Below, piece after piece: positions 20,233-44,091 of a stretch of 44,091 bases of DNA. The position numbers and the translations under genes were made by a program. Under the pieces are notes generated by a model. That model did not search any database and was not told the origin of the DNA. It worked only from the letters and a program-made list of their open reading frames with translations. The stretch spans positions 1 to 44,091 of the forward strand of contig JBPCPB010000284.1 in assembly GCA_050999735.1 (NCBI GenBank). Reading direction: 5' to 3'. Every line of letters begins with the position of its first letter. Positions within the stretch are counted from its first letter, which is position 1. Source of the stretch: Thermomicrobiales bacterium. GTDB taxonomy: Bacteria; Chloroflexota; Chloroflexia; Thermomicrobiales; JALYUS01.

Positions 20233-20241
20233 TATCACTCA

Positions 20242-20270: not shown

Positions 20271-20346
20271 GCAAGTCACTTCAGCAACGAGCGATCGTGT
20301 CCTCATCATGGTGAATGCGCCTTATGCAGTGGGGAAGGAGCCTGGA

Positions 20347-21918: not shown

Positions 21919-21923
21919 GCGGG

Positions 21924-22844: not shown

Positions 22845-22855
22845 GAGGGCAATGA

Positions 22856-23749: not shown

Positions 23750-23804
23750 CGCGGATGGCAATGGCAATGAATGACGCCGTTTGAGATTCAGAGAGGGTGC
23801 GGAC

Positions 23805-24575: not shown

Positions 24576-24593
24576 GTCATAGAGGAGGATCTC

Positions 24594-25760: not shown

Positions 25761-25790
25761 CGCAACGCTCTTGGAGGTATGGGGCCGCAG

Positions 25791-26636
25791 TCATGTGGCT
25801 GCACGTTGAGAGAGTAGGTCATGGAGGCTGCCGCCGAGGATACGGGCTTTGTCGGACTCCGGGATGAAGTCACAATGCACGCGGACGGCCTCGAGGGCAT
25901 GCTGATACGTACTCGCGCGCCGCACGACGGGATAGTCGGATCCCCAGTGCAGACGCTCGGGACCGAAATGCTCGTATAGCGCCCGAACGATCGGGGCGCA
26001 ATCGGCATAGGGATATTCCCAGGCGACGCGGGAGACGTAGTGGAAGCCGGAAAGCTTGATGTGGATATTGGGCCGTGACGCCGAGGCGAGGATCTCGCTG
26101 AGTGGCGTGGTGGTCGATGCGACCCGCGCACCGGCCATGTGATGGCAGAGAAAGGGGACACTTGAACAGCGCCGTGCAAGCTCGCGCAGCACGGGTTGGA
26201 GATGCACTGGCAGCGACAAGCTGACGATCAGATTACACTCGGCCGCCTGTTCAAAGAAGCCCGACCCTTCACCGGAGAGTAGCCACGTGCCATCGTCGTC
26301 GGCGCGGACATAGTGCGTAAAGCCCTTTAGGTTGTAGGCGGCCGCCGCCGATGAGAGCCGCGCGGCCGCACCTGACGTGTGATAGGTCGATGTCCAGTGG
26401 CTATCGACATCGGCAAACTGGTGCAGACGGCCGGGATACCGCTGCACGCATTCCGCGACATAGTCGTTGTTATCCGGGTTGTGATCGATGCAGGCACAAA
26501 CAATGACCGCTTGAGCGACGCCGTGTTGCTCCATCTCGAACAGAAGTTGCTCGATCGTCGCGCGGCTGGACGGATCGGGCACCGGTGGTTGGTAGGGCCA
26601 CATCCGCCATGCGTGGCAGTGCGCGTCGATGATCAT
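25791..26636 (-). CDS. Amidohydrolase_2-family protein with canonical HxH motif (sugar lactonase-like, LRA2 / fuconolactonase type)
   Basis: Start MIIDAHCHAW with a GGGAGGGA RBS. C-terminal GSDYPV block. The longer tracked ORF (to 26705) lacks an RBS. Confidence 0.75.
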   Translation of the reverse strand: MIIDAHCHAWRMWPYQPPVPDPSSRATIEQLLFEMEQHGVAQAVIVCACIDHNPDNNDYVAECVQRYPGRLHQFADVDSHWTSTYHTSGAAARLSSAAAAYNLKGFTHYVRADDDGTWLLSGEGSGFFEQAAECNLIVSLSLPVHLQPVLRELARRCSSVPFLCHHMAGARVASTTTPLSEILASASRPNIHIKLSGFHYVSRVAWEYPYADCAPIVRALYEHFGPERLHWGSDYPVVRRASTYQHALEAVRVHCDFIPESDKARILGGSLHDLLSQRAAT

Positions 26637-26805
26637 CTTCTCCCTCCCGCATCCATCATGATCGGTTGAGATGGCAGTATATCGCGCGCAATCCGACGGT
26701 GACATGCATCCGCTCGTCCTTCAGGCACGGGATTCATGAGACGGCATCGATGATGGGCTTCGGGGAATGGTGCGGGTCAACGCCTTAACAGGAAGGGGAA
26801 GACGA

Positions 26806-29435: not shown

Positions 29436-30398
29436 CTATTGCGCCTGCTGCAGGCGGATGCGCGGATCGAGCACGCCGTAGACCAGGTCGACGACCAGGC
29501 TGACCGCAACCGTTACCACGGCGATGAAGAAGACATTGGTGAGGACGACGGGATAATCGCGCGCGAGGGCGGCGGTCGTCGTCACCTTGCCCAGCCCGGG
29601 CAGACCGAAGACCGTCTCGACGATCGCCGAACCGCCGAGCGTGACGGGGATGATCGTATTGAGGAGGCTCACCACGACGAGCAGAGCGTTGCGCAAGGCG
29701 TGGCGCGTCACGACGTAGGTGTCCCCGAAGCCTTTCGCGCGCGCCGTGCGGATGTAATCCTCCGCGAGCGTCGTCGTGAGGCCATCGCGCAGGTAGCGCG
29801 CGAGGATCGTCGCCGGACCGAGCGCGACAACCAGCGTCGGCATGACGAGGTAGGGGAGCGAGGCGGCGCCCTGGAAGCCGACCGTCCCCGGCGGGCCGAG
29901 GCCGGAGCCGGGCAGCACATGCCACGCCTCCGTGAAGAGCCGGAGGAGGAGGACGCCGAGCAGGAACGGCGGGAAGGCGAGCGTCGTCGCCATCGCGGCG
30001 GAGAGCGCGCGATCGACCCAGCCACCGGGGCGCCGCGCCGCGAACGCCCCGAAGGGGACGGCGATCAGCATCGCGAACCCCAGGCCCGTTGTTGTCACGA
30101 TGAGCGTCGTCGGGAAGGCGTCGCGCACGATCTGATAGGTCGGCTGCTGCGACTTGAACGACCGCAGATCGCCGCGCACGAGGCCGCGCATCATCTTGAC
30201 GTACTGCACCGGTAAGGAGTCATCCAAGCCGAGTTCGTGGCGCACCGCCGCCCGATCCTCCGGCGTGAGCAGCGAGGGATCAACGACGAGCGTCACGGGA
30301 TCGCCCGGCGTCAGGCGGAAGATCAGGAAACAGAGGATCGAGACGCCGATCAGCAGCGGTACCGTCTCTTCCAAGCGGCTGATCCAGTAGCGCGACAT
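29436..30398 (-). CDS. ABC transporter permease (DppB/OppB-like)
   Basis: Start MSRYWISRL overlaps the upstream stop (ATGA-type overlap at 30398). Blocks DYIRTARAKG and YPVVLTNVFF. Confidence 0.9.
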   Translation of the reverse strand: MSRYWISRLEETVPLLIGVSILCFLIFRLTPGDPVTLVVDPSLLTPEDRAAVRHELGLDDSLPVQYVKMMRGLVRGDLRSFKSQQPTYQIVRDAFPTTLIVTTTGLGFAMLIAVPFGAFAARRPGGWVDRALSAAMATTLAFPPFLLGVLLLRLFTEAWHVLPGSGLGPPGTVGFQGAASLPYLVMPTLVVALGPATILARYLRDGLTTTLAEDYIRTARAKGFGDTYVVTRHALRNALLVVVSLLNTIIPVTLGGSAIVETVFGLPGLGKVTTTAALARDYPVVLTNVFFIAVVTVAVSLVVDLVYGVLDPRIRLQQAQ

Positions 30399-31330
30399 CA
30401 GCGCCGCCTCCGTGTCGGGTCGAGCGCGTCCCGCACGCCCTCGCCGAAGAGATTGAAGGCAAGCACGACGAGGAAAATCGCTACACCGGGGAAGACGACG
30501 AGCCACCACGCCTGCCGCGCGAAACGCGCTCCGTCCGCGACCATGTTGCCCCAGCTTGGCGTCGGCTCAGCAACGCCGAGTCCGAGGTAACTGAGGCCCG
30601 ATTCGACGAGGATATTGCTCGCGACGCGGATCGTCGCGCTTGCGATGATCACCGGGATCAGTTGCGGGATCAGGTGCCGTACGACGATGCGCAGGTCGCT
30701 CGCACCGATCACGCGGGCCGCCGCAACGAAATCTTGCCGCCGTAGTTTGAGCATCAACGCACGGACAACGCGCGCGTTGGCGGGCCAGGATGTGAAGCCG
30801 ATCATCAGGATCAAAAGCGTCAGGCTGCGGCCAAACGTGGCGACGGCGAGGATCAGGAGGAAGAAGGTCGGAAAGACGAGCACGAGATCGGTGAGCCGCA
30901 TTAGGAGCCGGTCCGCCCAGCCGCCGAGATAGCCCGCGAACGATCCGATCGCGACGCCGACGATCAGCGTGATGAGCATTGACAGGAGTCCGATGGAGAG
31001 CGAGACCCGCCCGGCATAAATCAGGCGGCTGAGCACATCGCGCCCCAGCCCGTCGCCGCCCAGGATGAAGGCGGAGCCGGGCGGTGCGAGGCGGAGCTGC
31101 ACGTATTGCGCCTCCGGTCGTTGCGGCGCGAGCACGGGCGCGAAGATCGCCACCAATCCGGCCACCCCGATGATCGCCCCGCCAAAGGCAATCCGCCCAT
31201 TCGCCACGATCCATCGGGCCGGTACGAACCTGCGCCGCGCCGCAGGGCGCAACGGAGTCGCGTTTGCCGGTGCATGCACCTCCGGTTCCAGTACCGGAAG
31301 GGGTGTTCGTGCTCGATCGCTCATCGCCAT
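30398..31330 (-). CDS. ABC transporter permease (DppC/OppC-like)
   Basis: Blocks GGDGLGRDVLSRLIYAGRVSL, FVAAARVIGA and WGNMV. Confidence 0.9.
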   Translation of the reverse strand: MAMSDRARTPLPVLEPEVHAPANATPLRPAARRRFVPARWIVANGRIAFGGAIIGVAGLVAIFAPVLAPQRPEAQYVQLRLAPPGSAFILGGDGLGRDVLSRLIYAGRVSLSIGLLSMLITLIVGVAIGSFAGYLGGWADRLLMRLTDLVLVFPTFFLLILAVATFGRSLTLLILMIGFTSWPANARVVRALMLKLRRQDFVAAARVIGASDLRIVVRHLIPQLIPVIIASATIRVASNILVESGLSYLGLGVAEPTPSWGNMVADGARFARQAWWLVVFPGVAIFLVVLAFNLFGEGVRDALDPTRRRR

Positions 31331-31391
31331 AGACCGATTCCCATTCCCTGTCTCACTCCTCCGACCGCAGCGTGAGAGGCCGAACGCCGCC

Positions 31392-31420
31392 GCACCGATC
31401 TATCGCCGGATCATCGGTGC
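31392..31420 (-). other. Stem-loop 3' of the SBP gene (minus-strand transcript)
   Basis: GCACCGAT (31392-31399) pairs with ATCGGTGC (31413-31420) around a 13-nt loop. Confidence 0.3.
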
Positions 31421-31431
31421 AGTCCTGCCGC

Positions 31432-33192
31432 CTATTGCTTGTAGTACCACGCGGCGGCATCCCGCCAGTTGAAGTACGAGCTGGGATAATCGGGCGTGAC
31501 GAGATCGGCGCTGTAGGCGTAGGCGTTGGGGGGATTGCCGAGCCAGAGATGCGGCACGTCCTGCGCGATGACCTCCTGCCACTCGTAGTAGAGTTTGCGC
31601 CGCTCCTCCTGATCGTTCGTGGCCGCCGCGCGGTTGATCAGCTCGTCCGATTGCGGGTTATTGTAGCTGTTGCGGTTATTCGCGCTCAGGAAATAGCCCG
31701 GCAGCGCGTAGTGCGGGTCCGTGTAAAGCGTGTAGACGACCTGCAACCCCGCCGCCTCGAAGGTGCGCGTGCTGTAGTACTGCGTGTTCAGCGTGTTGAA
31801 GTCCACGAACTGGTGCTTCATTTCCACACCGACTGCCTTCCACTGCTGCTGCACGACGAGCGGCCAGTCATTGTAGATCGAGTACATTGTGAAGGAGAAC
31901 TTCTGCCCCTCCTTCTCGCGGAGGCCGCCCGGTCCCACCTTCCAACCTGCCTCATCGAGGAGCCGCCTGGCCTGCTCCGGGTCGTTGTCAAAGAGCGTCG
32001 TATCCTTCTTCGTCGGCCACCAGTCGTAGGGGAAGACGGAGTTGTAGATCTGCGCGCGCCCCTTCCAGATGGCGTCGTTGATCGCCTGACGGTTGAGCGC
32101 AAACGAGAGCGCCTTGCGCACGCGCACATCCTGGAAGAGCGGCTTGGCGAGGTTGAATTCGATGTATTGGTTCGCGCGGCCCGGTTTTAGGACACGACGC
32201 AGCGACGAGTCCCCCTGGAGCTGATCGTAGGCGTCGAGCGACAACTCGACCGCGTTCATCTCCTTCGATTTCAACCCCGTGATGAGCGTGTTCGCGTCCG
32301 CATTCGGGATCATCCGGTAGACGACGCGATCGAGGTGCGGGCGACCGCCGAAGTAGTCATCGAACGCCTTGCCGATAATGCTGTCTCCTGTCTTCCAGAC
32401 CTCGAAGACGAAGGGGCCGGTACCGATCGGGGCGCGGGCATATGGGTGCTTGAGCATCTCCGCGACGGGGACGCCGCCGAGGATGTGCTTCGGGATGATG
32501 TACTGGCCCGCGCCGATGGTGAAGAACGGCGCGGAGGGCGCGGTCAGATTCGCTTGGAGCGTAAAGTCATCGAGCACCTTGATGCCCGTGATCTCCCGCG
32601 CCTTGCCGGTGTGGAACTCCGGCGCGCCCGCGACGAAGGCGAAGAAGCTATAGAGTTGTGCCCCCGTCTTGTTGTCCGGGTGAGCGATCGTCTCCCAGGT
32701 GAACTTGACATCGGCGGCGGTGAAGGGCTGCCCGTCGTGCCACTTGATGCCCTTACGGAGTTTGAAGGTCCACTGCGTGCCATCAGGCGTACTCGTCCAC
32801 GACTCGGCGAGATCGGGGAGCGGTTCGAGATTCAGCCCCGGCTTCGTCAGGCCGTTGAAGAAGGGCGCCGTCGGGGCGATCACAGTGGAGAAGCTGCTGA
32901 AAGAGGGGATCAGGTGCGAGCCCTCCTGCGAGGCATAGTAGACCGCCGTGCCACCCTTCCGTGCGATGCTCGTGGCTCCGACGGGAGGAGATTGCGCCGC
33001 AGGCGCGGCCGAGCCGGATGCGGCGGCTGTGCTAGTGGGCGCTGATACGGCGGGTGAGGGCGCGGCGGTCGGGATCGCGCCCCCGCACGCCGCGAGGATG
33101 CTGCCGGCGGCAATACCAGAGACGAGCGCGATACCGCGCCGTACGATCCGGCGACGGCTCATGCGGGAAGAAATATCTGCTGAATCTGCCAT
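31432..33192 (-). CDS. ABC transporter substrate-binding lipoprotein, SBP family 5 (Opp/Dpp-type), Tat signal
   Basis: AAGGAGA RBS before ATG 33192. Signal SRRRIVRRGIALVSGIAAGSILAAC GG. Family 5 block WHDGQPFTAADVKFTWE. Confidence 0.9.
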   Translation of the reverse strand: MADSADISSRMSRRRIVRRGIALVSGIAAGSILAACGGAIPTAAPSPAVSAPTSTAAASGSAAPAAQSPPVGATSIARKGGTAVYYASQEGSHLIPSFSSFSTVIAPTAPFFNGLTKPGLNLEPLPDLAESWTSTPDGTQWTFKLRKGIKWHDGQPFTAADVKFTWETIAHPDNKTGAQLYSFFAFVAGAPEFHTGKAREITGIKVLDDFTLQANLTAPSAPFFTIGAGQYIIPKHILGGVPVAEMLKHPYARAPIGTGPFVFEVWKTGDSIIGKAFDDYFGGRPHLDRVVYRMIPNADANTLITGLKSKEMNAVELSLDAYDQLQGDSSLRRVLKPGRANQYIEFNLAKPLFQDVRVRKALSFALNRQAINDAIWKGRAQIYNSVFPYDWWPTKKDTTLFDNDPEQARRLLDEAGWKVGPGGLREKEGQKFSFTMYSIYNDWPLVVQQQWKAVGVEMKHQFVDFNTLNTQYYSTRTFEAAGLQVVYTLYTDPHYALPGYFLSANNRNSYNNPQSDELINRAAATNDQEERRKLYYEWQEVIAQDVPHLWLGNPPNAYAYSADLVTPDYPSSYFNWRDAAAWYYKQ

Positions 33193-33297
33193 GCCCCGGT
33201 CTCCTTCGTCATCGATCACGCGCGGATGTACCGAGACAATGGCTTGGAAGGCCCACGCCCCGTATGCATTCTCCGCAACGGTGAGCGCGCCAGTTGT

Positions 33298-33327
33298 ATT
33301 CCTAACATTCAAAGATTAATATGTCAA
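33298..33327 (-). promoter_or_regulatory. Candidate promoter for the minus-strand SBP5 operon
   Basis: On the minus strand: TTGACA (33327-33322), 17-nt AT-rich spacer, TAGGAAT (33304-33298). The -10 is weak. Confidence 0.3.
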
Positions 33328-33604: not shown

Positions 33605-36292
33605 TCAGACGAAAGGAAATACGGACACGAACGTATACGTGCCCGAACCGACGGTGAAGATTGCCTCTCCCTTCTCCATCCGGAAAAACGCGACCCCTTC
33701 CGCCTCTCGCGCCAATGTCGCCCCCTCGCGTATTGCGGCGCCATCCGTTGCCCCCGATGGCACGTGGACGATCGCTGTCGTGTTCGCGGGAATCGTGACG
33801 TCGAGCGTGAAGGTATCGCCGTCCCGTCGCCACGCAGTGGTGATCCGCCCCCGCACGGAGTCGTATGTCGCCTCGGCGGATTGGAAACTCCCGCCCGGGT
33901 GAGGATGGATGAGGATGCGCCGGTAACCGGGGGCTGCGGGATCAGTGTCGATCCCGGCGACCGTACGGTAGAGCCATTCGCCCACAGAGCCGAGCGCGTA
34001 GTGATTGAAGGAGTTCATGCCGGGATCCTGGAACCCGTGCTCCTCGGTCCAGCCGTCCCACCGCTCCCAGATCGTCGTCGCGCCGTGCCTGATCGTGTAC
34101 CCCCACGAGGGGAACGTGTCACTCTCAAGCAGTCGGTAGGCTACGTCGGGGCGTCCAACTACGGTTAGTGCCGGGCAGAGGTAGCCAACGCCGACGAAAC
34201 CTGTGGAGAGGTGCCAGCCCCGGCGCTCGATGTCCGCCACCAAGCGGTCTGTCGCAGCGGCACGGAGATCGGCGGGCAGGAGATTCATGTACAGGGCAAG
34301 TACGTACCCGGTCTGTGTCTCGCCCCGCACCGTGCCATCGGCGGAGACGTACGTCGTAATAAATGCCTCCTTGATCTTCTCAAATAGCGCGTCGTACTGC
34401 CGGGCTTCGTCGTGACGGTCGAGGACGCGGGCCATCTCGGCCATGAGACGCGCGTCATATGCCCAGTATGCCGTGGCAAGGAGGTCTTTCGGCGTCGCGC
34501 TGGCTCCCGGGTGTCGCATCGCGCCGCCATCGAGTGCCAGCCAATCGCCGAAGTTATTGTTGAGCTGCCCGTTGCGCAGATAGCCGAGATTTCCCCGCGC
34601 CAAGTACGTCATCCACCGTGTCATCGCCTCCCAATGCCGCGCGACGATCCGTGTGTCGCCGTAGCACTGCCAGATCGTCCACGGGACGATCACCCCAGCA
34701 TCGCCCCAGGCGGGTGCGCCATCTGTGAGATTCACCAGCCGCGGCGCAACATCGGGAAATGCCCCCGCTCCCGATTGCCCATCCTCGACGTCGCGCATCC
34801 ACTTGGTAAAGAAGGTCGCAACGTCCATATTGAAGCATGCGGTGCGAATGAATATCTGCGCGTCGCCCAGCCACCCGAGACGCTCATCGCGCTGTGGGCA
34901 ATCGGTGGGAACACTGAGGAAGTTTCCCCGTTGCCCCCAGACGATGTTGCGCTGCAATTGGCTCACCATCGGGTTCGAGCATGTGAAGGTGCCGGTAGGC
35001 GGCGTGTCGGAATGAACGACGCAGCCCGTGATCATATCCACCGTTGGTACGCCAGGGAAGCCGATAATTTCGGCGTAGCGGAACCCATGGAAGGTGAAGC
35101 GCGGTTCCCAGGTTTCCTCTCCCTCACCATGCAGGATGTACGTATCGGTCTGCATGGCGGTACGTAGGTTGTCGGTGTAGAGCGTCCCATCCGGGTTAAG
35201 CATCTCTGCAAATCGGAGTCGTATCTTCGTGCCTGCATCGCCTTGGACACGCAGGCGGACCCATCCCGCGATGTTTTGCCCGAGATCGAAGATGAAGGTG
35301 CCCGATGCTGGCTCGGTCACTGAAATGGGAACAATTTCCTCGGTCACTCGGGCCGGTGGGACAGATGCGGCGACGATTTGTGTGTCGCCTCGATCCCGCA
35401 CGCGCACGGGCTGCCAATCGGTATCATCAAAACAAGGAGCGTTCCAGCCTGTGAGCGTGCGACGCGCGTCGTAGGTCTCGCCCATCAGCAGGTCAGAGAA
35501 GCGAATCGGACCAGTCGTGCTCTTCCATGTACCATCAGTCACGACTGTCTGCGCCGTGCCGTCGGTATATTCTACATGCAGTTGCAGCAGCGCTTCTGGA
35601 CGCGATCCGTAATGCCTACTGGACCCGCCGAAACCGACATGGCCGGCATACCATCCCGTGCCAAGGATGACGCCGAGCACGTTCTCTCCCTCGTGGAGGG
35701 ATCCCGTCACATCATGGGTCTGATACTCAATTCGCGCTTGGTAATCGGTCCAGCCGGGTGCGAGCAGAGCGTTGCCCACGCGATTGCCATTGATGTAGAT
35801 TTCGTAAAGACCTCGGGCCGTGCTGTACAGCCGTGCGGCCCGCATTGGTTTCGTGAGACGCACGATTGTGCGCAGGTATGGGCTTGGTGGTAAATCCTCC
35901 TCCGCCTCTATGCCCGGTCCGACCCACCCCCCAAGCCATTCGTCGGTATGGAGCAATCCCATCTCCCACCAGCCGGGCTGACTGTACGCCGACGGCCTGC
36001 CTTCCCGATCCCATACACGCACCTTCCACCAGCAGCGCCTACGCGATTGGAGCGCCGCTCCCGCGTAGACGATGTGGATGGATTGATCAGACGGGACCTT
36101 CCCGCTCTCCCATAGGTCGCCGCCGTCGGCATCGAGAAGTTCCGCGCTGCTGGCAACGATAACTTGGTAGGCAGTTTGTCGCTGCCCGCGGTCCGCTGAC
36201 TCAAGAACCCAGCTAAGGCGTGGCTGGGCTTCATCGATCCCGAGAGGATCTGTCAGATATTCGCACCGCAATCGCGTCGGCGTAATGGGCAT
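33605..36292 (-). CDS. Alpha-L-rhamnosidase, glycoside hydrolase family 78
   Basis: The hallmark N-terminus LRCEYLTDPLGIDEAQPRLSW, a length of about 895 aa, and the multi-domain bacterial rhamnosidase pattern (six-hairpin core with DCPQRDERLGWLGD). AGGAGG RBS. Confidence 0.9.
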   Translation of the reverse strand: MPITPTRLRCEYLTDPLGIDEAQPRLSWVLESADRGQRQTAYQVIVASSAELLDADGGDLWESGKVPSDQSIHIVYAGAALQSRRRCWWKVRVWDREGRPSAYSQPGWWEMGLLHTDEWLGGWVGPGIEAEEDLPPSPYLRTIVRLTKPMRAARLYSTARGLYEIYINGNRVGNALLAPGWTDYQARIEYQTHDVTGSLHEGENVLGVILGTGWYAGHVGFGGSSRHYGSRPEALLQLHVEYTDGTAQTVVTDGTWKSTTGPIRFSDLLMGETYDARRTLTGWNAPCFDDTDWQPVRVRDRGDTQIVAASVPPARVTEEIVPISVTEPASGTFIFDLGQNIAGWVRLRVQGDAGTKIRLRFAEMLNPDGTLYTDNLRTAMQTDTYILHGEGEETWEPRFTFHGFRYAEIIGFPGVPTVDMITGCVVHSDTPPTGTFTCSNPMVSQLQRNIVWGQRGNFLSVPTDCPQRDERLGWLGDAQIFIRTACFNMDVATFFTKWMRDVEDGQSGAGAFPDVAPRLVNLTDGAPAWGDAGVIVPWTIWQCYGDTRIVARHWEAMTRWMTYLARGNLGYLRNGQLNNNFGDWLALDGGAMRHPGASATPKDLLATAYWAYDARLMAEMARVLDRHDEARQYDALFEKIKEAFITTYVSADGTVRGETQTGYVLALYMNLLPADLRAAATDRLVADIERRGWHLSTGFVGVGYLCPALTVVGRPDVAYRLLESDTFPSWGYTIRHGATTIWERWDGWTEEHGFQDPGMNSFNHYALGSVGEWLYRTVAGIDTDPAAPGYRRILIHPHPGGSFQSAEATYDSVRGRITTAWRRDGDTFTLDVTIPANTTAIVHVPSGATDGAAIREGATLAREAEGVAFFRMEKGEAIFTVGSGTYTFVSVFPFV

Positions 36293-36637: not shown

Positions 36638-37087
36638 TCACGTAGCAAACCCGATCACCACGTTGTGCCGTTCTACGGAGACGTCGTACATCTCGGCGAC
36701 GTATGGGCCCTGCTCCAAACCGTGAAGCGGGGGCGGCGTCCCGATCGTGCAGAGGCTCGGTTCGAGAGAGATTTCATAGCGCCGGACACGGACCCGCCTT
36801 GGGTCGAACCATGATTGGCCCGTTCGGATATCGAATTCCCAGCCATGCCAGGGGCAGCGGAGGATCTCGCTCTGACGGCTGTAGGCGTACTCACCCGGGA
36901 CTTTAGAATGAACAAACCCTGATAGGCGCCCTGTGCAGAGTGGTCCGCCCTGATGCGGGCAGCGGTTGCGGAGGGCGAAGAATTCTCCGTTGACGTTGAA
37001 GACGCCGATGGAGCGCCCCGCGACCTCGACAATCTTGCGCTGTCCCGGTGGAATTTCATCCACGGTTGCAACGATGTATTTCACCAC
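36638..37087 (-). CDS. Small Rieske [2Fe-2S] domain protein (paralog 1)
   Basis: Contains CPHQGGPL and CPWHGWEF boxes. The start is set at GTG 37087 or 37084, after a GGAGA RBS, by analogy with the paralog N-termini (KYIVATVDEIPPG). The tracked ORF to 37252 overlaps AH1. Confidence 0.85.
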   Translation of the reverse strand: MVKYIVATVDEIPPGQRKIVEVAGRSIGVFNVNGEFFALRNRCPHQGGPLCTGRLSGFVHSKVPGEYAYSRQSEILRCPWHGWEFDIRTGQSWFDPRRVRVRRYEISLEPSLCTIGTPPPLHGLEQGPYVAEMYDVSVERHNVVIGFAT

Positions 37088-37148
37088 GATGTCTCCATGG
37101 AGGTGCAGCGAGTAGACCGGTTCGTCCAGGTAGAGCGACTGCGCATGG

Positions 37149-38249
37149 TTACAACGCGGAGTTAAATCGGTAGAGCGCATGTGCGTTGCCCGACATGATC
37201 TTCGCGGTCCGCTCTGGCGGGAGCTTGACCGGAAGTGCCTGATCGGGGGCATCGAAGTCCCAGTGCGGATAGTCGGTCGCGAACATCAGGTGGTCGTCCA
37301 TATCCATCTGTTCGAGAAGTTCATGGAAGTATTCCGGCTTTCCTGGCTCCTCCATCGGTTGGGTCGTCGTCCAGAAGTGTTCACGGATGTACTCGGAGGG
37401 GAGCCGTTTCAGGTGCGGCACTTCCTCGCGTAACCGCTTCACACTCGTATCTAGACGCCACATGAGCGGTGGCAACCAGGCGAGACCGCCCTCGATAAGC
37501 ACCACCTTCAGCGTTGGGAATGCCTCGAAGACCCCCTCGCACACGTAGCTGATCACCTGCGACTGGAACGCCTGTGCCATCCCGGTGTGATCCTCGATAT
37601 AGTATGAGGGCCATCCCGCTCCGGTCGTGGGGTTCCCCGCGACGCCGCCCCCAAAATGGATGCCGATGGGCAGGTTGTGACGGGAAGCCGCCTCGTACAT
37701 CTTCCAGTATTTGCGTCGTCCGAGCGGCTCGCTTGTCCGCACGACGAGGATTACCTGCACGAAGCGCGGATCGGCGGCGCGCTGCTCGATTTCCGCTGCC
37801 GCCATCTCCGCATTCTCGCCGTGCACGACGATCGAGGCGCGCAGGCGCGGCTCCGGGTCGAGCCACCCCGCGACTTGCCAATCGTTGATCGCGTGAGAGA
37901 GAGCGAACCCATAATCCGGATTCGTCTCCCGGATTGGCGTCGTATTATTGAGCACGCCGTACGAGATATCCCACGCATCGAGCAGTTGCTCGCGGAGGAA
38001 GGACAAATCGGACCCTGGTGGCCGACCGGACGGTGGCCAGGAGTCCGTACGCGCCGCGTTCGGATTCGCTTTCGGATACGCGCCGCCCGCGAAACCGCGG
38101 CGTCCGAATCGCTCGTAGTGCGCGCGCCAACGCTCTGGAAGGAACGGGATCAGCGCTTGCGGTGAGGGGAGGGTGTTGTGGATGTCGCAATCGACGATCT
38201 GCACTTTCGTGCGGCTGTGTCGCTCGGATTTCATAGCGGTGACGGCCAT
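37149..38249 (-). CDS. Amidohydrolase_2-family protein, type A paralog (AH1)
   Basis: AAGGAG RBS 6 nt before ATG 38249. N-terminal IVDCDIHN, then NDWQVAGWL, GWPSYYIEDH and C-terminal FATDYPHWDF. Confidence 0.85.
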   Translation of the reverse strand: MAVTAMKSERHSRTKVQIVDCDIHNTLPSPQALIPFLPERWRAHYERFGRRGFAGGAYPKANPNAARTDSWPPSGRPPGSDLSFLREQLLDAWDISYGVLNNTTPIRETNPDYGFALSHAINDWQVAGWLDPEPRLRASIVVHGENAEMAAAEIEQRAADPRFVQVILVVRTSEPLGRRKYWKMYEAASRHNLPIGIHFGGGVAGNPTTGAGWPSYYIEDHTGMAQAFQSQVISYVCEGVFEAFPTLKVVLIEGGLAWLPPLMWRLDTSVKRLREEVPHLKRLPSEYIREHFWTTTQPMEEPGKPEYFHELLEQMDMDDHLMFATDYPHWDFDAPDQALPVKLPPERTAKIMSGNAHALYRFNSAL

Positions 38250-38277
38250 TGGATACTCCTTTTCGTCTATTCGGGGA

Positions 38278-39342
38278 TCAGAGGCGATAAAACGCATGGG
38301 CGTTGCCATACAAGACTTTGTCCATCACTTCCGTCGGCCACACGACCGGCGGGGACGCCTCCTCAGGCGTGTCGAAGTGCCAGTGCGGGTAATCGGTCGA
38401 GAACATCAGCAGGTCATCAGATTCGAGTTGACCGACGATCTGCCGCATCTGACGGTCGGTGTTCGGCGCGTCAAGCGGTTGTGTGGTAATACGGACGTGC
38501 TCATGGATATACTCCGACGGGAGCCGACGCACCCATGGTACTTCGCGTCGCAGCCCTTTCCACTCCTTATCCAAGCGCCACGCGAAGGACGGAAGCCAGG
38601 TGAATCCGCTCTCGATCAGCGCGACATGCAGCGTGGGAAACTGGTCAAAAACTCCCTCACAGATGAGACTCATCAGCTGTGATTGGAAGACCGTGGCCAT
38701 GCCTACATATTCCTCGATGTAATATGAGGGCCAACCGACCGCAGTCGGGGGATTGCCCGGCGCGCCGCCGAAGTGGATACCGACGACGAGGTCGTGGCGC
38801 ACGGCCGCATCGAAGATGGGATGGAAGCGCCGGTTGCCATAGGGGGCCGCCGATCGTGCGGGCAGGAGTACCTGCACGAACCCCGGATGGTTACCGAGTC
38901 GCTCGATCTCCCGCGCGGCCATCTCGGGGTGCTGGCTCGGCACCACGAGTGAGGCGCGTAGGCGCGACTCCTGCTCCAACCATTCCGCGATCTGCCAATC
39001 GTTGACGGCGCTAGCGAGGGCGGCGGCGGCGTCAGGATTATGCACGCTCTCCACGGCGTACGCACAAGTGAGGATTCCGTATTCCACCCCCCACGCGTCG
39101 AGCACCTGTGTACGCATCAGTCCGAGATCCGACCCTGCTGGAGCACCATCGGCGGGCTTCGTGTCGGGTCGGGCAGTGATCGACGCGCTCTGCGGATACC
39201 AACTCTCCTCAGGGCCTTTGAAACCGGATTGGCTGATGTACTCGCGCCAAAAGTCGGACAGATAGGGAAAGAGCGCCTGCACAGCCGGCACGGTGTTGTG
39301 GATATCACTGTCGATCACGGCTCGCCCGGTCCAAAATCCCAT
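38278..39342 (-). CDS. Amidohydrolase_2-family protein, type B paralog (AH2)
   Basis: AGGAG RBS 7 nt before ATG 39342. Blocks VIDSDIHN, NDWQIAEWL, GWPSYYIEEY and FSTDYPHWHF. Confidence 0.85.
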   Translation of the reverse strand: MGFWTGRAVIDSDIHNTVPAVQALFPYLSDFWREYISQSGFKGPEESWYPQSASITARPDTKPADGAPAGSDLGLMRTQVLDAWGVEYGILTCAYAVESVHNPDAAAALASAVNDWQIAEWLEQESRLRASLVVPSQHPEMAAREIERLGNHPGFVQVLLPARSAAPYGNRRFHPIFDAAVRHDLVVGIHFGGAPGNPPTAVGWPSYYIEEYVGMATVFQSQLMSLICEGVFDQFPTLHVALIESGFTWLPSFAWRLDKEWKGLRREVPWVRRLPSEYIHEHVRITTQPLDAPNTDRQMRQIVGQLESDDLLMFSTDYPHWHFDTPEEASPPVVWPTEVMDKVLYGNAHAFYRL

Positions 39343-39386
39343 TGACATGCTCCTACACAATGCCGTTGACAGCCAGTTTCCACTAC

Positions 39387-39836
39387 TCAGGGGGCAACCT
39401 CGATTACGAGATACTGTCCTTCCGCCATGACCGGATACGTCTCAGCGACGTATGGCCCCGGCACCTTGCCGACGATGGGTGGGTCGGCGGTAGTCAGAGC
39501 ATCGCCCGGCTCGACGCTGACATTGTACCGGCGCACGCGCAGACGCTCGGGATCGCACCACGACTGCCCGGTGCGGATGTCGAACTCCCAGCCGTGCCAC
39601 GCGCAGGTGAGAATTTCGCCCGCGCGGGTGTATTCCAGTTCACCCGGCGCTTGCGCCTGGAGCATGCCCCAAATCTTGCCCTCGCACAGCGGCCCGCCCT
39701 GATGCGGGCAGCGATTGCGCAGCGCGAAGAACTCGCCATTCACATTGAAGATACCGATGGAGCGCCCGGCGACCGTGACGATCTTCCGCCCGCCTGGCGG
39801 GATTTCGTCCACTGCCGCCACGATGTAGCGCACCAT
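39387..39836 (-). CDS. Small Rieske [2Fe-2S] domain protein (paralog 2)
   Basis: Boxes CPHQGGPL and CAWHGWEF. ATG 39836 is preceded by GAGGG. An alternative ATG at 39848 overlaps the AH3 stop as ATGA. Confidence 0.85.
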   Translation of the reverse strand: MVRYIVAAVDEIPPGGRKIVTVAGRSIGIFNVNGEFFALRNRCPHQGGPLCEGKIWGMLQAQAPGELEYTRAGEILTCAWHGWEFDIRTGQSWCDPERLRVRRYNVSVEPGDALTTADPPIVGKVPGPYVAETYPVMAEGQYLVIEVAP

Positions 39837-39844
39837 TGTTGCCC

Positions 39845-40939
39845 TCATTCCACGACATCGGACAGCCGGTACAGTTCTCGCGCATTTTCATAGTAGATCT
39901 TCCGGCGCACATCGTCTGGGAGGCGGGCCGGAATCGCGGTGTCGGGCGCGTCCCAGTCCCAGTGGGCGTAGTCACTGGCGAAGATCAAATGGTCCGTGCC
40001 GACCTGCTCCATCAGCCAGAGCAAGTCCTCCGGCTGATGCGGCTCCTCGACGGGCTGCGTGCAGAACCAGACGTGATCGCGGATGTATTCGGACGGGCGG
40101 CGCGTGAGGTGCGGCGTCTCGTCGCGCAACAGTTGGTACGTGTTGTCCAGCCGCCAGAGCAAGGAGGGAACCCAGGCGAAGCCATTCTCCGCCGAGACGA
40201 CCCGTAGCGTCGGGAAGCGCTCGAAGACACCCTCGACCACGAGGCTGATGAGATTGGCCTGCATCGATTGGGCTGGCCCGATGTGGTCCTCAATGTAAAA
40301 CGACGGCCAGCCGCAGCCGGTGATCGGCTGCCCGCCGGAACCGAAGGCATGCGACATCACGACGAGGCCATGCGCGGCGCATGCTTCGTAGATCGGCCAG
40401 TACTTGCGGCGGCCCATCGGCTCGCGCGGGCGGCCGGTGAACTGCACTTGAACGAAGCGCGGATCGCGGGCACGCCGTTCGATCTCCGCTACTGCGAGAT
40501 CGGCGTGCTCGAAGGGAAGGATAACCGAGGCACGCAGGCGTGGCTCCTTGTCGAGCCATTCCGCGACTTGCCAGTCGTTCACGGCGGTTCCCAAGGCCGC
40601 GCCAAACTCGGGATTGAGTTGGGATCCGACTCCCGTCAGAGGATTGAGAATCCCGTAGGCGACGTTCCACTCGTCGAGCAATTGTACCGCAGTGAAGGCA
40701 CAGTCCGAGCCAGCCGCGCGACCCGACGGCGGGAAGGAATCATTGCGCCGATTCATGAAGCGCGGGTAAATCCCTCCAGATGGAGTACGCATCCCGTAGG
40801 TCTTGAGATGCTCCGACCAGCGCGCCGACAGAAACGGGTAGAGGTCCTTCTCGGAGTCGAGTTCGTTGTGGATGTCGCAATCAATGATCGCTGGTTTCGT
40901 CCGACTCTTGTGTGTGGCGCGCTCCAATGTCGTGGCCAT
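39845..40939 (-). CDS. Amidohydrolase_2-family protein, type A paralog (AH3)
   Basis: GGAGGAG RBS before ATG 40939. Blocks IIDCDIHN, NDWQVAEWL, GWPSFYIEDH and FASDYAHWDW. Confidence 0.85.
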   Translation of the reverse strand: MATTLERATHKSRTKPAIIDCDIHNELDSEKDLYPFLSARWSEHLKTYGMRTPSGGIYPRFMNRRNDSFPPSGRAAGSDCAFTAVQLLDEWNVAYGILNPLTGVGSQLNPEFGAALGTAVNDWQVAEWLDKEPRLRASVILPFEHADLAVAEIERRARDPRFVQVQFTGRPREPMGRRKYWPIYEACAAHGLVVMSHAFGSGGQPITGCGWPSFYIEDHIGPAQSMQANLISLVVEGVFERFPTLRVVSAENGFAWVPSLLWRLDNTYQLLRDETPHLTRRPSEYIRDHVWFCTQPVEEPHQPEDLLWLMEQVGTDHLIFASDYAHWDWDAPDTAIPARLPDDVRRKIYYENARELYRLSDVVE

Positions 40940-40955
40940 GTGTCTCCTCCAGAAC

Positions 40956-42062
40956 TTAATAGGCGTGTGCCGGTGCCGGCGACAGCCCGTACAACTCGCG
41001 GGCATTCTCCCCGGAGATCTTCCGTGCCAGCGCATCGGGCAGGTGCGGCAGCACGGTTTCGAGCGGATCGCTTGTATGCAGATGTGGGTAATCGCTCGCG
41101 AACAGCAGCATGTGATCGCCGTCAATCTGCGCGATTATCCGTTCCATATCCCGCCATTCCCGTGGCGCGTCGAGCGGTTGGATTGTCAGCCGGACATGCT
41201 CACGGATGTACGCGGACGGCGCGCGTTTCACCCATGGTACGAGGCGGCGCAGATTGCGCCACTCCTTGTCGAAGCGCCACATGAATGCCGGTAGCCAGGT
41301 AAAGCCGCTCTCCAGCAAGGCGATGCGCACAGTGGGGAAGAGGTCGAGCACCCCCTCGCTGATGATGCTCGCTAACTGTGACTGGAAGACCTGCGCCATC
41401 CCCGCGTACTCCTCGAAGTAGTACGACGGCCAGCCGGAGGGGAAGGGCGGGTTGCCGGGCGCACCGCCGAAATGGATACCGGCGACGAGATTCCGCTTGG
41501 CAATCGCCTCCCACAGCGGGCGGAAAAGGCGGCTGCCGTACGGGTGCTCCGAGCGCACGGGAAGCAACACCTGGACGAAGCCGGGGTGGTCGCCGACGCG
41601 CGCGATCTCCGCTGCCGCCAGTTCCGGCAGTTGGACGGGCACGACGATGGAGGCGCGCAGGCGCGGCTCCTTGTCGAGCCACTCGGCGATCTGCCAGTCG
41701 TTGACGGCGCGGGCGAAGGCGACCGCCGCTTCGGGGTTGTGCAGGCTGTCAATCGCGTAGAGGCAATTGACGACCGCGATCTCCACACCAAACGGGTCAA
41801 GGAGTTGGGAGCGCAAGAGATCAAGGCTGGAACCGGCCGGGCCATCGGGCGGGACGCTGCCGGGGCGGGCAGCGACGGGCGCGCGTGGCGGGTAATACGT
41901 CGTGCCCGCGCCCTTGAAAACGGACTGGTTAACATGCTCGACCCAGTGCTGGGGCAGATAGGGAAAGAGCGCCTCGACGCGCGGCACGGTGCTATGGACA
42001 TCGCAGTCAATCAGCGCGGTTGACGTGGTTGCCACGCTTACTCCATCTGGTTGTGTCTGCAT
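40956..42062 (-). CDS. Amidohydrolase_2-family protein, type B paralog (AH4)
   Basis: GAGGAGG RBS before ATG 42062. Blocks LIDCDVHS, NDWQIAEWL, GWPSYYFEEY and FASDYPHLH. Confidence 0.85.
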   Translation of the reverse strand: MQTQPDGVSVATTSTALIDCDVHSTVPRVEALFPYLPQHWVEHVNQSVFKGAGTTYYPPRAPVAARPGSVPPDGPAGSSLDLLRSQLLDPFGVEIAVVNCLYAIDSLHNPEAAVAFARAVNDWQIAEWLDKEPRLRASIVVPVQLPELAAAEIARVGDHPGFVQVLLPVRSEHPYGSRLFRPLWEAIAKRNLVAGIHFGGAPGNPPFPSGWPSYYFEEYAGMAQVFQSQLASIISEGVLDLFPTVRIALLESGFTWLPAFMWRFDKEWRNLRRLVPWVKRAPSAYIREHVRLTIQPLDAPREWRDMERIIAQIDGDHMLLFASDYPHLHTSDPLETVLPHLPDALARKISGENARELYGLSPAPAHAY

Positions 42063-42257
42063 CGGCACCTCCTCAGGTGATTGTGCCTCGTGGGTACTCC
42101 CTGACTTGATCTCCGCAAGGACGGCTATCAATCGTGCGAGGCTTATTACGCGGGACTCTCTCAGCGGCCGGTGATGGTCGTTTGGGTATCAGATCAAACC
42201 TCCCAATCCTGCGGCCTGAACTGCGAATACTCCATTGAGCCCAGGCTATGGAATCCA

Positions 42258-42686
42258 TCAGAGCTCCACGTGCAGGATGACCATCTCCCGTTCGATCGAG
42301 ACCGGGAACATCTCGATTGACGGGTCCTCGTCCGCCTCGGCGCACTCGATCGTGACTTCATACCGTTTCACCCGCGTCTTGTGCGGATTGACGATCGAGC
42401 GCCCCGTAAGGATGTCGAACTCCCAGCCGTGCCAAGGGCAGCGGAGAATTTCTCCCTCGCGTTCGATCTCGTAGCGATACGGTGCGGGGCCGACAACGAG
42501 ACCCTTGAGCATGCCTAAACAGAGCGGTGCGCCCTTGTGCGGACAGCGATTCCGCAGCGCGTAGTACCGCCCCGCGACGTTGAAGACACCGATTGAGCGC
42601 CCTTCGACCTCAACGATCTTTCGTCCCCCCGGTGGCAACTCATCCACTGTGCCGACCATGTGCCGCATCATTGCTTTCGCTTTCAC
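42258..42686 (-). CDS. Small Rieske [2Fe-2S] domain protein (paralog 3)
   Basis: Boxes CPHKGAPL and CPWHGWEF. GTG start 7 nt after a GGGAGGA RBS. Confidence 0.85.
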   Translation of the reverse strand: MKAKAMMRHMVGTVDELPPGGRKIVEVEGRSIGVFNVAGRYYALRNRCPHKGAPLCLGMLKGLVVGPAPYRYEIEREGEILRCPWHGWEFDILTGRSIVNPHKTRVKRYEVTIECAEADEDPSIEMFPVSIEREMVILHVEL

Positions 42687-42710
42687 ACATGCATCCTCCC
42701 TTCCCCGTGG

Positions 42711-43838
42711 TTACAGACCAAAGGTTTCACGGGCATTCTCGACAAAGATCCGCTGGCGCAGTTCATCCGGCAGTGTCGTAAAGCTTTGCGCCGGGTCGTC
42801 CCAATCCCAATGCGGGTAGTCACTGGCGAACATCAGCGTGCGGTCGCCGTCCATCCACGAGATCAATTCGGCTAGCGCTTCGGGAGTGTCCGGCTCGTCG
42901 ATTGGTTGGGATGAGAAGCGCACATGTTCGCGCATGTATTCGCTCGGCAACCGCTTGACCCAGGGCGTTTGGTGGCGCAAGCTCTTCCAATCGCCGTCCA
43001 TCTTCCATCGGTAGGCTGGGACCCAGCCGAAGCCGCCCTCGAGCATTGCCACTTTCAGCGTCGAGAACTTCTCGAACACCCCTTCGAAGATGAAACTGGC
43101 GAGATGGGCCTGATAGAACGATGGGCGCGCCTGCCGGATTTCGATGTAATAGCTGGGGAATCCGGCCGCTGTCGGCGGCGGGTTGATCCCCACGCCTTCC
43201 GCGTTGAAGTGCAATGCCACCGTGAGGTTGTGCCGGACGCACGCCTCGTAGATCGGGTGATAAAACCGCTGACCGTATGGCCGCGGCGCGCCGCACGGCA
43301 TCATGACGCCGACCACGCTTGGGTGGGACCCCACCCGGTCAATCTCCTGCGCCGCCCCAGCCGGATCCTGCGTGCAGATCGCAATCGCGACGCGGAAGCG
43401 GTGATCAGCGGTCAGCCAGTGCTCGATCGTGAAATCGTTGAACGCGCGACAAAGCGCGCTCGCGTAGTCGATGTCGTTCAAGGCACTGGCAACGTAGAGT
43501 TGCCCACCGGTCAGGATGGCGAGGTCGATCCTCGCCTCATCGAGCAATTGAGATCGCACTTTGTCGACGTTCAACGCCCGGGTGCCATCGTCGCCGGGGT
43601 CATCGGGATCATAGGCATCGACGCGGCGGCCACGCAATCCGCCGTTATTCGCGTACCCGCCCCCGCCGCCCCCGTAGCCGAAGTCGGCGAGGCGCTCCCG
43701 GTACACCTGGGGAAGATAGGGGTAGAGATCCGATTTGTCGCGATAGCCGTGATGCACGTCTGTGTCAATCACGCTCAAGCGGCGTCGCGCGCGGTCTGGG
43801 GTCTCATGCTTGGTCCGCTGCACGGTTTCTAGTGCCAT
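42711..43838 (-). CDS. Amidohydrolase_2-family protein, divergent paralog (AH5)
   Basis: GAGGAGAG RBS. Blocks VIDTDVHH, NDFTIEHWL, GFPSYYIE and FASDYPHWDW. It has a unique Gly-rich insert, GYGGGGGGYANNGG. Confidence 0.85.
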   Translation of the reverse strand: MALETVQRTKHETPDRARRRLSVIDTDVHHGYRDKSDLYPYLPQVYRERLADFGYGGGGGGYANNGGLRGRRVDAYDPDDPGDDGTRALNVDKVRSQLLDEARIDLAILTGGQLYVASALNDIDYASALCRAFNDFTIEHWLTADHRFRVAIAICTQDPAGAAQEIDRVGSHPSVVGVMMPCGAPRPYGQRFYHPIYEACVRHNLTVALHFNAEGVGINPPPTAAGFPSYYIEIRQARPSFYQAHLASFIFEGVFEKFSTLKVAMLEGGFGWVPAYRWKMDGDWKSLRHQTPWVKRLPSEYMREHVRFSSQPIDEPDTPEALAELISWMDGDRTLMFASDYPHWDWDDPAQSFTTLPDELRQRIFVENARETFGL

Positions 43839-43892: not shown

Positions 43893-44091
43893 TCAAGGCG
43901 CATCCTCGCCGACGGGTGCTGCGTTCCATTCCTGCGCCATCGGGGACGCTTCCCAAGCGGTGAGGTCGAGCAGGCCAAGCCCGCGCCCGTACCCGGCCTC
44001 ATCGCCGTGAAAGTTCATCATGAATGCCATCCAGCGACCATCGGGGCTGATGTTCGAGTTGCTGGCCCGCCACGGTGATCGGTCGAAGAAG
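43893..44091 (-). CDS. 3' end of a gene running off the window; C-terminus resembles a PD40/TolB-type beta-propeller repeat
   Basis: Hand translation of the minus strand from 44090 gives FFDRSPWRASNSNISPDGRWMAFMMNFHGDEAGYGRGLGLLDLTAWEASPMAQEWNAAPVGEDAP, ending at stop TGA (43895-43893). SPDGRWMAF is PD40-like. It is absent from the ORF track because no start codon lies in the window. Confidence 0.4.
   Translation of the reverse strand, partial: FFDRSPWRASNSNISPDGRWMAFMMNFHGDEAGYGRGLGLLDLTAWEASPMAQEWNAAPVGEDAP

Follow-up and report, generated by a model that had tools for sequence, protein, structure and literature searches.

An array of amidohydrolase-like and Rieske genes in a Thermomicrobiales bacterium with the predicted features of several multicomponent ARO monooxygenases

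Gene organisation of the array

The stretch of DNA analysed here (the window) comprises 44,091 nucleotides from a Thermomicrobiales bacterium of the phylum Chloroflexota (assembly GCA_050999735.1, contig JBPCPB010000284.1, positions 1 to 44,091). Towards its right end eight open reading frames (ORFs) lie head-to-tail on the minus strand. Pfam was applied for domain assignment to all eight encoded proteins. Five of them, designated AH1 to AH5, contain the Amidohydro_2 domain (PF04909, E 3e-34 to 1e-39) and three small proteins, Rieske1 to Rieske3 (Rk1 to Rk3), contain the Rieske domain (PF00355, E about 2e-16 to 2e-17). In transcription order the array consists of AH5 (42711..43838), Rieske3 (42258..42686; E 2e-17), AH4 (40956..42062), AH3 (39845..40939), Rieske2 (39387..39836; E 2e-16), AH2 (38278..39342), AH1 (37149..38249) and Rieske1 (36638..37087; E 3e-17). 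The ORFs, their coordinates and strand are those of a preliminary description made from the sequence alone, and its five amidohydrolase and three Rieske genes are confirmed by the Pfam search.

From AH5 to Rieske1 the genes are separated by 24, 195, 16, 8, 44, 28 and 61 nt, in agreement with the short gaps (given as 8–62 nt) and the single 195-nt gap reported before. The latter (42063..42257, minus strand) lies between the AH5-Rieske3 pair and the AH4 cassette and is a possible internal promoter or unit boundary. No consensus site was found in it by sigma-70 and terminator scans, and Rfam gave no match in it at E ≤ 0.1. The promoter and terminator scan yielded matches at chance level, and Rfam yielded none in the array; tRNA genes are missing from the whole window. 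That each gene has its own GGAGG-type ribosome binding site holds for most starts, which are preceded by strings of the GGAG or GAGG type, while the strings are weak at Rieske2 (GAGGG) and Rieske1 (GGAGA). JGI gene calls have longer starts for AH1 (382 amino acids) and Rieske1 (180 amino acids); an alignment of the paralogues favours the shorter versions used here.

AH1 and AH3 (type A) share 55% identity and AH2 and AH4 (type B) share 59%, compared with 41–50% between the two types and 39–42% between AH5 and the other four. Rk1 and Rk2 are 65% identical to each other, Rk3 is 54–56% identical to both. These values bear out the proposed alternation of types A and B and the repeating unit type B-type A-Rieske (B-A-Rieske cassette). 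At pairwise identities this low, the genes are old, diverged paralogues and no assembly artefact; the repeat is genuine and not a product of chance.

A JGI metagenome contig (L001) is 99.87% identical to the window over 11.4 kb and extends past position 44091. It carries a sixth gene of the AH type (AH6, 361 amino acids, motifs DVH and DYPHWD) and a fourth Rieske gene (Rk4, 140 amino acids) at L001 1617-3142 on the minus strand. The count of five AH and three Rieske genes is right for the window; past its edge further genes follow on the strand of the array, and beyond them the divergent AH6 and Rk4.

Relationship to the ARO family

AibH1H2, the hydroxylase of the three-component 2-aminoisobutyrate (Aib) monooxygenase, is the founding member of the family of amidohydrolase-related dinuclear oxygenases (AROs). 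Its partners are the Rieske ferredoxin AibG and the FMN/2Fe-2S reductase AibF, and the gene order is aibH1-aibH2-aibG-aibF (Hibi 2021, PMC7782822). AibH2 contains a Mn/Fe cofactor and AibH1 one structural metal; among 555 AibH2-like proteins a small Rieske gene co-occurs in 90% and permeases in 40% (Powell 2023, PMC10401708). PF04909 ranks ninth among the neighbours of small Rieske genes, which was the route to the discovery of SfbO and to the naming of the AROs, and structures were solved for SfbO (8SM6), D3EI84 (8SM7), B6JH23 (8SM8) and W7L2Y2 (8SM9) (Liu 2024, PMC10811679). According to Liu 2026 the family has about 17,000 sequences, and its defining motifs are D-x-H near the N-terminus and D-x-P-H-x-D/E near the C-terminus. 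Docking and electron paramagnetic resonance evidence places the Rieske ferredoxin beside the D-x-P-H-x-D/E loop, and D-x-H and D-x-P-H-x-D are reportedly missing from characterised hydrolases and decarboxylases of the fold (PMC13154177).

A profile built from the five AH proteins was compared with the PDB. It matched the ARO structures (8SM6-8SM9, 6M1W/6M2I, 8FUL-8FUO) over their full length with E values of 1e-94 to 1e-125, whereas the classical PF04909 enzymes (gamma-resorcylate decarboxylase, LigW, ACMSD, LigJ) reached only 1e-23 to 1e-5 with the same profile. Singly, each AH protein aligns full-length to ARO crystal structures (E 1e-55 to 1e-118). The D-x-H motif of Site 1 is present in AH1–AH6 as DIH or DVH, aligned with D25/H27 of AibH2 and D30/H32 of SfbO. 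Indeed, alignment with the crystal-structure sequences reveals conservation of the AibH2 ligand positions D25, H27, H211, E265, D337 and H340 in AH1–AH6, with the positions of the bridging E265 and of H211 invariant in all six proteins. The position of AibH2 D342 is occupied by Asp in AH1, AH3, AH5 and AH6 and by His in AH2, AH4 and AibH1. The C-terminal motif D-x-P-H-x-[D/E] is exact in AH1, AH5 and AH6 (DYPHWD); AH2 (DYPHWH) and AH4 (DYPHLH) differ from it at the last position, as AibH1 does.

Judged by these alignments and motifs, the five AH proteins belong to the ARO family, two-metal oxygenases that are fed by small Rieske proteins. AH1, AH3, AH5 and AH6 classify as catalytic-type AROs and AH2 and AH4 as ARO-related proteins outside the strict motif. 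The sequence blocks formerly regarded as private to the five AH proteins also occur in SfbO, AibH2 and other AROs, and one of them reads PSAY, not PSEY, in AH4. Two further statements of the preliminary description, that amidohydrolase_2 enzymes have no known Fe-S partner and that the array matches no characterised pathway, have to be given up: AibH1H2 works with the Rieske ferredoxin AibG (PMC7782822), and AibH1H2/AibG/AibF is a characterised three-component monooxygenase of the subfamily found here. The ARO family is therefore a characterised subfamily with a known Rieske partner, a situation that the preliminary description had itself named as refuting its reading.

For low-potential, Mn-preferring L-AROs the rule is a hydrophobic gamma1, a hydrophilic gamma2 and an aromatic gamma4 residue (Table 1 of PMC13154177). 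The gamma2 column was assigned from the Thr of SfbO 'AILTGG'. The three residues are Ile, Asn and Trp in AH1 and in AH3, which also has Trp at gamma5, and Val, Thr and Trp in AH5. All three proteins agree with all three rules and would classify as low-potential Mn-preferring AROs; this predicts no more than their metal preference.

Type A and type B subunits

AH1 has AibH2 as best PDB match (6m1w_B, E 3.9e-93, 316 bits, versus 191 bits for AibH1). It is 49% identical to AibH2, contains the motifs DIH and DYPHWDF and keeps all ligands as well as D342. AH3 shares 46% identity with AibH2 and keeps the six ligands and D342. In neighbour-joining trees (100 bootstraps), type A and AibH2 form a clade with 78% support, within which the AH3 subclade reaches 100%. 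Furthermore, the column of SfbO R232 holds His in type A, as in AibH2, and Tyr in type B, as in AibH1. AH1 and AH3 are predicted to be AibH2-like catalytic subunits of dinuclear oxygenases. The DYAHWD variant of the C-terminal motif seen in AH3 also occurs in a metagenome-assembled genome (MAG) of the Thermomicrobiales (L077 3659-4825).

For AH2 the best PDB match overall is 8SM7 (305.6 bits), and of the two AibH chains AibH1 (6m1w_A, 255 bits) scores above AibH2 (251 bits); AH4 shares 39% identity with AibH1. The DYPHLH motif of AH4 has His at the D342 position, like DYPHKH of AibH1, and the five Site-0 ligand positions are kept. Both type B proteins retain the mononuclear-site ligands D, H, H, E and D, and AH2 has the AibH1-type Tyr at the SfbO-R232 column. 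In type B proteins of related loci the D342 position is H, Q, N or R, never D or E. AibH1 is mononuclear for loss of the acidic residue at D342, according to Hibi et al. (PMC7782822), and the D342A mutant of AibH2 revealed this residue to be critical for the reaction (Powell et al., PMC10401708). Across the subunit interface AibH2 D342 is hydrogen-bonded by K282 of AibH1 (PMC12141560). The equivalent Lys is present in AH2, in AH4 and in 79 of 79 type B homologues, and in none of 65 type A homologues. A Tyr near this interface Lys (AibH1 Y287) is not kept in type B, which has Leu instead.

In both cassettes, AH4-AH3-Rk2 and AH2-AH1-Rk1, type B lies directly upstream of a catalytic-type subunit and a Rieske gene. 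AH2 and AH4 are probably non-catalytic partner subunits, AH4 the predicted mononuclear partner of AH3 and AH2 that of AH1. The AibH1-like assignment of type B is drawn from signature residues and gene order, not from the tree. An exclusive sister relationship of A and B received 0% bootstrap support; since the two types are never exclusive sisters, the A/B split is ancient, and a recent local duplication was rejected for this reason. The heteromer of types A and B that had been suggested is probable, and the gene order is meaningful, as in aibH1-aibH2-aibG.

These features have consequences for family searches. The family definition in ScanProsite form would miss AH3-like variants and all type B subunits. 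An earlier six-ligand filter would let type B pass, which would then be counted as catalytic.

AH5 and the SfbO clade

AH5 differs from both types. Its best PDB match is SfbO (8sm6, E 3.6e-118, 398 bits) with 51% identity, and the two proteins group in 100 of 100 neighbour-joining bootstraps. AH5 contains the motifs DVH and DYPHWDW and keeps all AibH2 ligand positions and D342. The sulfonate-binding residues N67, R232 and R235 of SfbO are kept in AH5 only among the paralogues; W341 and W343 are also conserved. AH5 is a predicted homomeric catalytic oxygenase with a dinuclear site of the Mn/Fe type, and it may act on a group bearing sulfonate or sulfate.

The sulfate-binding Y280 of SfbO (PMC10811679) could not be mapped to 8SM6, which has an Asp at residue 280 and its closest Tyr at 287. 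The numbering otherwise reproduces N67, R232, R235, W341 and W343, so a numbering or transcription slip is possible. The column of Tyr 287 holds Gln in AH5.

The closest genome-derived homologue of AH5 (70% identity) is encoded in a Chloroflexota MAG (L082 10169-11413, JAJPIK010000018.1). It adjoins a choline-sulfatase-like gene and a SBP_bac_1 gene and has no adjacent Rieske gene. Bradyrhizobium sp. WSM471 (L084, CM001442.1 1843451-1862587) has all three components together: an ARO of the SfbO clade that shares 59% identity with AH5 lies between a gene of the ferredoxin-NAD+ reductase type and two Rieske genes. Downstream of this ARO is a gene for a thiamine pyrophosphate (TPP) enzyme of the 5-guanidino-2-oxopentanoate decarboxylase type, and the whole group is located between IS66-family fragments, a context that hints at guanidino or amino-acid-derived substrates in the SfbO clade. 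SfbO makes sulfoacetaldehyde in vitro, and the TPP enzyme was considered as sulfoacetaldehyde acetyltransferase (Xsc). This was rejected: it scores 774 bits as 5-guanidino-2-oxopentanoate decarboxylase type versus 229–252 bits for Xsc models.

Rieske ferredoxins and search for a reductase

The ligand motif C-x-H...C-x-x-H is intact in Rk1–Rk3, with CPH...CPWH in Rieske1 and Rieske3 and CPH...CAWH in Rieske2. The three proteins resemble dioxygenase ferredoxins (E 1e-11). Rieske3 has the Trp of C-x-W-H at position 85, as SfbR has W85 (PMC13154177); in all 100 bootstraps it clusters with Rk4, which partners the other solo ARO. Rieske3 is the predicted electron donor to AH5, while Rieske2 and Rieske1 are the predicted ferredoxins of the AH4-AH3 and AH2-AH1 cassettes, respectively. 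A published amidohydrolase and Rieske protein from riboflavin catabolism were discarded as irrelevant, as that paper concerns a classical Rieske dioxygenase.

A redox partner was said to be missing from the 44 kb. It is correct that neither a classical oxygenase alpha subunit nor a ferredoxin reductase was detected by Pfam among about 37 further ORFs of the window. Nevertheless, since the subfamily is that of the AROs, which take electrons from small Rieske proteins, the 'missing oxygenase' would be the AH proteins themselves.

B-A-Rieske cassettes in other genomes

When 185,579 species genomes were scanned with the type B alignment, 80 loci (L-numbers) at 58–71% identity were obtained. The MAGs that hold these loci belong to Chloroflexota (Caldilineae, Thermomicrobiales, Dehalococcoidales), Poribacteria, Latescibacterota and Acidobacteriota. 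For the count of gene order, 72 loci had enough downstream sequence. In 49 of these type B is immediately followed by another ARO, which is type A (DY[PA]HWD) in all 49 cases, and a Rieske gene follows in 40 of the 45 loci with room for one. Thus, AH-Rieske adjacency recurs outside this genome and across phyla, and the idea of a dedicated functional unit of AH and Rieske genes is supported; the fixed order is conserved in 49 of 72 related loci.

Doubled cassettes are present at L045 and L050 (B-A-R-B-A-R) and at L075 (B-A-B-A-R). In the trees AH4, AH3 and Rk2 join their counterparts from L077 and from the second cassettes of L045 and L050, with bootstrap support of 83%, 100% and 98%, respectively. 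The Rieske2 subclade mirrors those of AH3 and AH4, that is, the Rieske genes have diversified together with their cassettes. Because the three subclades share the same partner loci, cassettes are inherited complete, their own ferredoxin included. Outside the cassettes the neighbours vary. Transporter components are the most frequent ones, and only those of ABC transporters recur near the cassettes, other shared genes being due to lineage-specific synteny.

For seventeen type B homologues with the motif DYPHWH, mostly from Poribacteria, the flanking sequence of about 10 kb on each side contains neither an ARO nor a Rieske gene. Loci with such partnerless genes include L005, L009, L013, L014, L016, L017, L018, L020, L032, L040, L069 and L079, and some of the genomes hold a complete B-A-Rieske cassette elsewhere (L009 vs L060; L016 vs L064).

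Proposed function and alternative readings

We consider it very probable that the array encodes several multicomponent ARO monooxygenases, each with its own Rieske ferredoxin. From homology we infer complex formation, metal content, electron transfer and operon structure along the following lines. NAD(P)H would reduce a ferredoxin reductase, assumed to be encoded elsewhere in the genome, which in turn would reduce the Rieske [2Fe-2S] ferredoxins Rk1, Rk2 and Rk3 as well as Rk4 outside the window. The ferredoxin would dock at the C-terminal aromatic D-x-P-H-W-D-[WF] loop and reduce the dinuclear Mn/Fe (or Fe2) site of AH1, AH3, AH5 or AH6, a cofactor predicted by the gamma1/gamma2/gamma4 rules to be of the Mn/Fe 'low-potential' type. 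The reduced site would activate O2 for the hydroxylation of a C–H bond in an imported small molecule. AH2 with AH1 and AH4 with AH3 would probably form alpha2-alpha'2 heterotetramers, as AibH1H2 does, AH2 and AH4 being structural with a mononuclear site only. AH5 and AH6 would be stand-alone catalytic AROs like SfbO and D3EI84.

Several observations weigh against this reading. No reductase of a FAD, FMN or NAD family was found either in the 44 kb of the window or in the adjoining 8.5 kb (L001), and Pyr_redox_2 occurs in only 2 of 97 neighbours of related cassettes in a Pfam census. Likewise, clustering of the neighbours in the 80 loci together with this census revealed no recurrent reductase. 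The motif of AH3 has Ala in place of Pro (DYAHWD) with the D, H and D ligands kept, and the gamma residues of AH6 (V/L/W) include a Leu at gamma2 that is ambiguous for the metal prediction. In the neighbour-joining tree monophyly of type B received only 23% support and the grouping of type B with AibH1 only 17%. Given its 17 partnerless homologues, type B may not always be a partner subunit. As to transcription, the 195-nt gap splits the array.

Alternatively, the cassettes could be redundant isoenzymes, brought together in a mobile catabolic island through duplication or horizontal accretion, that act on different, unrelated substrates. This is tenable, but on balance we doubt it. The genes are old paralogues, as the 0% support for A+B sisterhood shows, and the AH3/AH4/Rk2 cassette is orthologous to cassettes of other MAGs. 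The substrate-facing positions differ among the paralogues, the contexts of related cassettes vary widely and the region has resolvase and transposase-like genes at its ends. On the other hand, L045 and L050 also hold both cassette types side by side, which suggests a functional link, and all genes of the array are co-directional with short gaps behind one importer.

It is unlikely that all five (or six) AH proteins are independent, active homomeric AROs. For this, type B would have to be an active oxygenase whose second-metal site is altered, the water-positioning Asp of Site 2 being replaced by His, Gln or Asn, and the B-A adjacency would reflect two sequential reactions without a heteromer. 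Type B indeed keeps D337 and H340 of the Site-2 loop and gamma1 (Ile/Val), and AH2 also has aromatic gamma4 and gamma5 residues. In PtmU3 a Glu at the D342 position ligates M2 directly, which a His could in principle do likewise. The type B homologues without a neighbouring type A or Rieske gene point in the same direction, as does the A/B identity of 41–50% here versus 28% between AibH1 and AibH2. Nevertheless, AibH1 carries the same D-to-H change and is mononuclear in crystals, and the D342A mutant of AibH2 attests to the importance of the residue. The interface Lys is found in every type B protein compared and in no type A protein. AH4 lacks the aromatic gamma4 and gamma5 residues that are linked to Rieske docking. 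Finally, the ARO that follows type B is always type A, usually with one shared Rieske gene.

Highly improbable is the reading of the preliminary description, in which conventional non-oxidative amidohydrolase_2 enzymes (decarboxylase, lactonase or hydratase) would have gained a Rieske protein for an uncharacterised chemistry: Pfam gives PF04909 only, NCBIfam has no model for the AH proteins and homologues are publicly annotated as 'amidohydrolase family protein', but the classical PF04909 enzymes match at least 70 orders of magnitude worse than the ARO structures, D-x-H is present throughout and D-x-P-H-x-D in exact form in AH1, AH5 and AH6, and the Rieske partnership is characterised for AibH1H2/AibG and supported for SfbO/SfbR.

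Going beyond the array of several multicomponent ARO monooxygenases, the B-A-Rieske type might represent a large undescribed branch of heteromeric AROs, and the four catalytic AROs and four ferredoxins of this locus might act sequentially on one imported compound in a multi-step Mn/Fe-dependent pathway. The compound would possibly be sulfonated or derived from a glycoside, and AibH1-like subunits would have been missed by a census with D-x-P-H-x-[D/E]. This proposal is tentative and we regard it as rather doubtful.

Comparison with known systems

AH-Rieske association and a heteromeric hydroxylase are already known, and the array is not a new type of system. What is new is the unusual stacking of cassettes, a single locus holding six AROs and four dedicated ferredoxins. 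The closest counterpart of the cassettes is AibH1H2-AibG-AibF of Rhodococcus wratislaviensis (PDB 6M1W, 8FUL-8FUO), which has the same order of non-catalytic AH, catalytic AH and Rieske gene. AH1 and AH3 share with AibH2 46–49% identity, the six ligands, D342 and the His at the SfbO R232 column; they differ from it at columns 67, 235 and 280, a comparison limited to the columns defined by SfbO. The substrate of AH1 and AH3 is presumably not Aib. AH2 and AH4 share with AibH1 the change of D342 to His, the mononuclear ligands, the interface Lys and the Tyr at the SfbO-R232 column. In contrast to the aib cluster, neither an AibF-type reductase nor the downstream aib catabolic genes were found in the window, types A and B are 41–50% identical compared with 28% for AibH1 and AibH2, and the cassette is present twice.

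For AH5 the counterpart is SfbO/SfbR of Litorilinea aerophila (8SM6), a cambialistic sulfonate beta-monooxygenase; both proteins come from Chloroflexota-type organisms. Besides N67, R232, R235 and W341, AH5 keeps the gamma5 Trp W343, which in SfbO stacks on the ferredoxin, and Rieske3 has Trp 85 in C-P-W-H. SfbO itself has no assigned native substrate. A point of difference is the location of AH5 downstream of a PD40-like gene and an Opp-type importer. Further homomeric L-AROs beside Rieske ferredoxins are D3EI84 (8SM7), W7L2Y2 (8SM9) and B6JH23 (8SM8), which have no assigned function. AH6 groups with D3EI84/8SM7 (53% identity, 92% bootstrap support in the neighbour-joining tree). Toluene-4-monooxygenase-type and Rieske oxygenase systems use the same chain from a reductase via a Rieske ferredoxin to a non-haem terminal oxygenase. 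Their terminal component is a four-helix-bundle diiron protein or a Rieske/mononuclear-iron alpha subunit, neither of which was found in the window by Pfam, whereas the array encodes proteins of the TIM-barrel amidohydrolase fold.

In the papers on AROs that were consulted we found no mention of how broad the B-A-Rieske clade is, of simple markers that tell partner from catalytic subunits, of the escape of partners and Pro-to-Ala variants from the published motif filter, or of a locus with six AROs and four ferredoxins. Among heteromeric AROs only AibH1H2 has been characterised to date, and at least 49 other loci point to a partner-subunit architecture that is widespread and inherited as a module. 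The D342 position and the interface Lys separate partner from catalytic subunits and could improve the annotation of thousands of 'amidohydrolase family proteins'. The locus offers a test bed for the pairing specificity of AROs and ferredoxins, for the role of the silent subunit and for new Mn/Fe-dependent C–H oxidations. A multi-step Mn/Fe-dependent oxidative pathway, if true, would have no characterised counterpart.

Genomic neighbourhood

AH5 is preceded on the same strand by the C-terminal end of a PD40/Tricorn_N-like gene (43893..44090, minus strand), the remainder of which lies outside the window. The entire gene in L001 (7660-8733) encodes 357 amino acids with faint PD40/Tricorn_N similarity and without a match in NCBIfam. 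Also upstream of AH5 on the same strand, L001 carries a SBP_bac_5 gene and two permease genes of the Opp type. Past this importer and divergent from the array follow AH6, Rk4 and a gene for a LacI-family regulator (L001 417-1439, minus strand).

Directly downstream of Rieske1, on the same strand, lies a gene for a GH78 alpha-L-rhamnosidase (33605-36292, minus strand), followed by a second Opp-type importer, a glyoxalase-like gene and a gene for a LLM-class oxidoreductase. Genes at 23781-26705 and 14227-15201 (plus strand) resemble those of a rhamnose pathway; the best names, all below the curated cutoffs of NCBIfam, are L-rhamnose 1-dehydrogenase Lra1, L-rhamnonate dehydratase and 2,4-didehydro-3-deoxy-L-rhamnonate hydrolase. 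A sixth Amidohydro_2 gene of the window, at 25791-26705 and not of the ARO type, could encode the lactonase. Together, the genes near the array look like a non-phosphorylative deoxy-sugar pathway, and the context of two Opp-type ABC importers, LacI regulator, GH78 enzyme and deoxy-sugar-acid pathway-like genes suggests that an organic compound is imported and broken down by stepwise oxidation.

Importer regions are located at 3902-10674, 19936-23784 and 29436-33312. Altogether four ABC importer sets are present in the 44 kb, two with SBP_bac_1/8 and two with SBP_bac_5 (Opp/Dpp) proteins, and no adjacent ATPase gene was seen among the ORFs examined. The window also holds genes for GntR and IclR regulators, three xylose-isomerase-like TIM-barrel genes and genes for two F420/LLM-class oxidoreductases. 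The catabolic region may be bracketed by mobile-element genes: a serine resolvase gene and a UPF0236-like transposase-related ORF (weak match) are located at the left end of the window (92-919 and 1638-2939, plus strand), and L001 has a DDE_Tnp_1_assoc fragment at its far end (163-351, minus strand).

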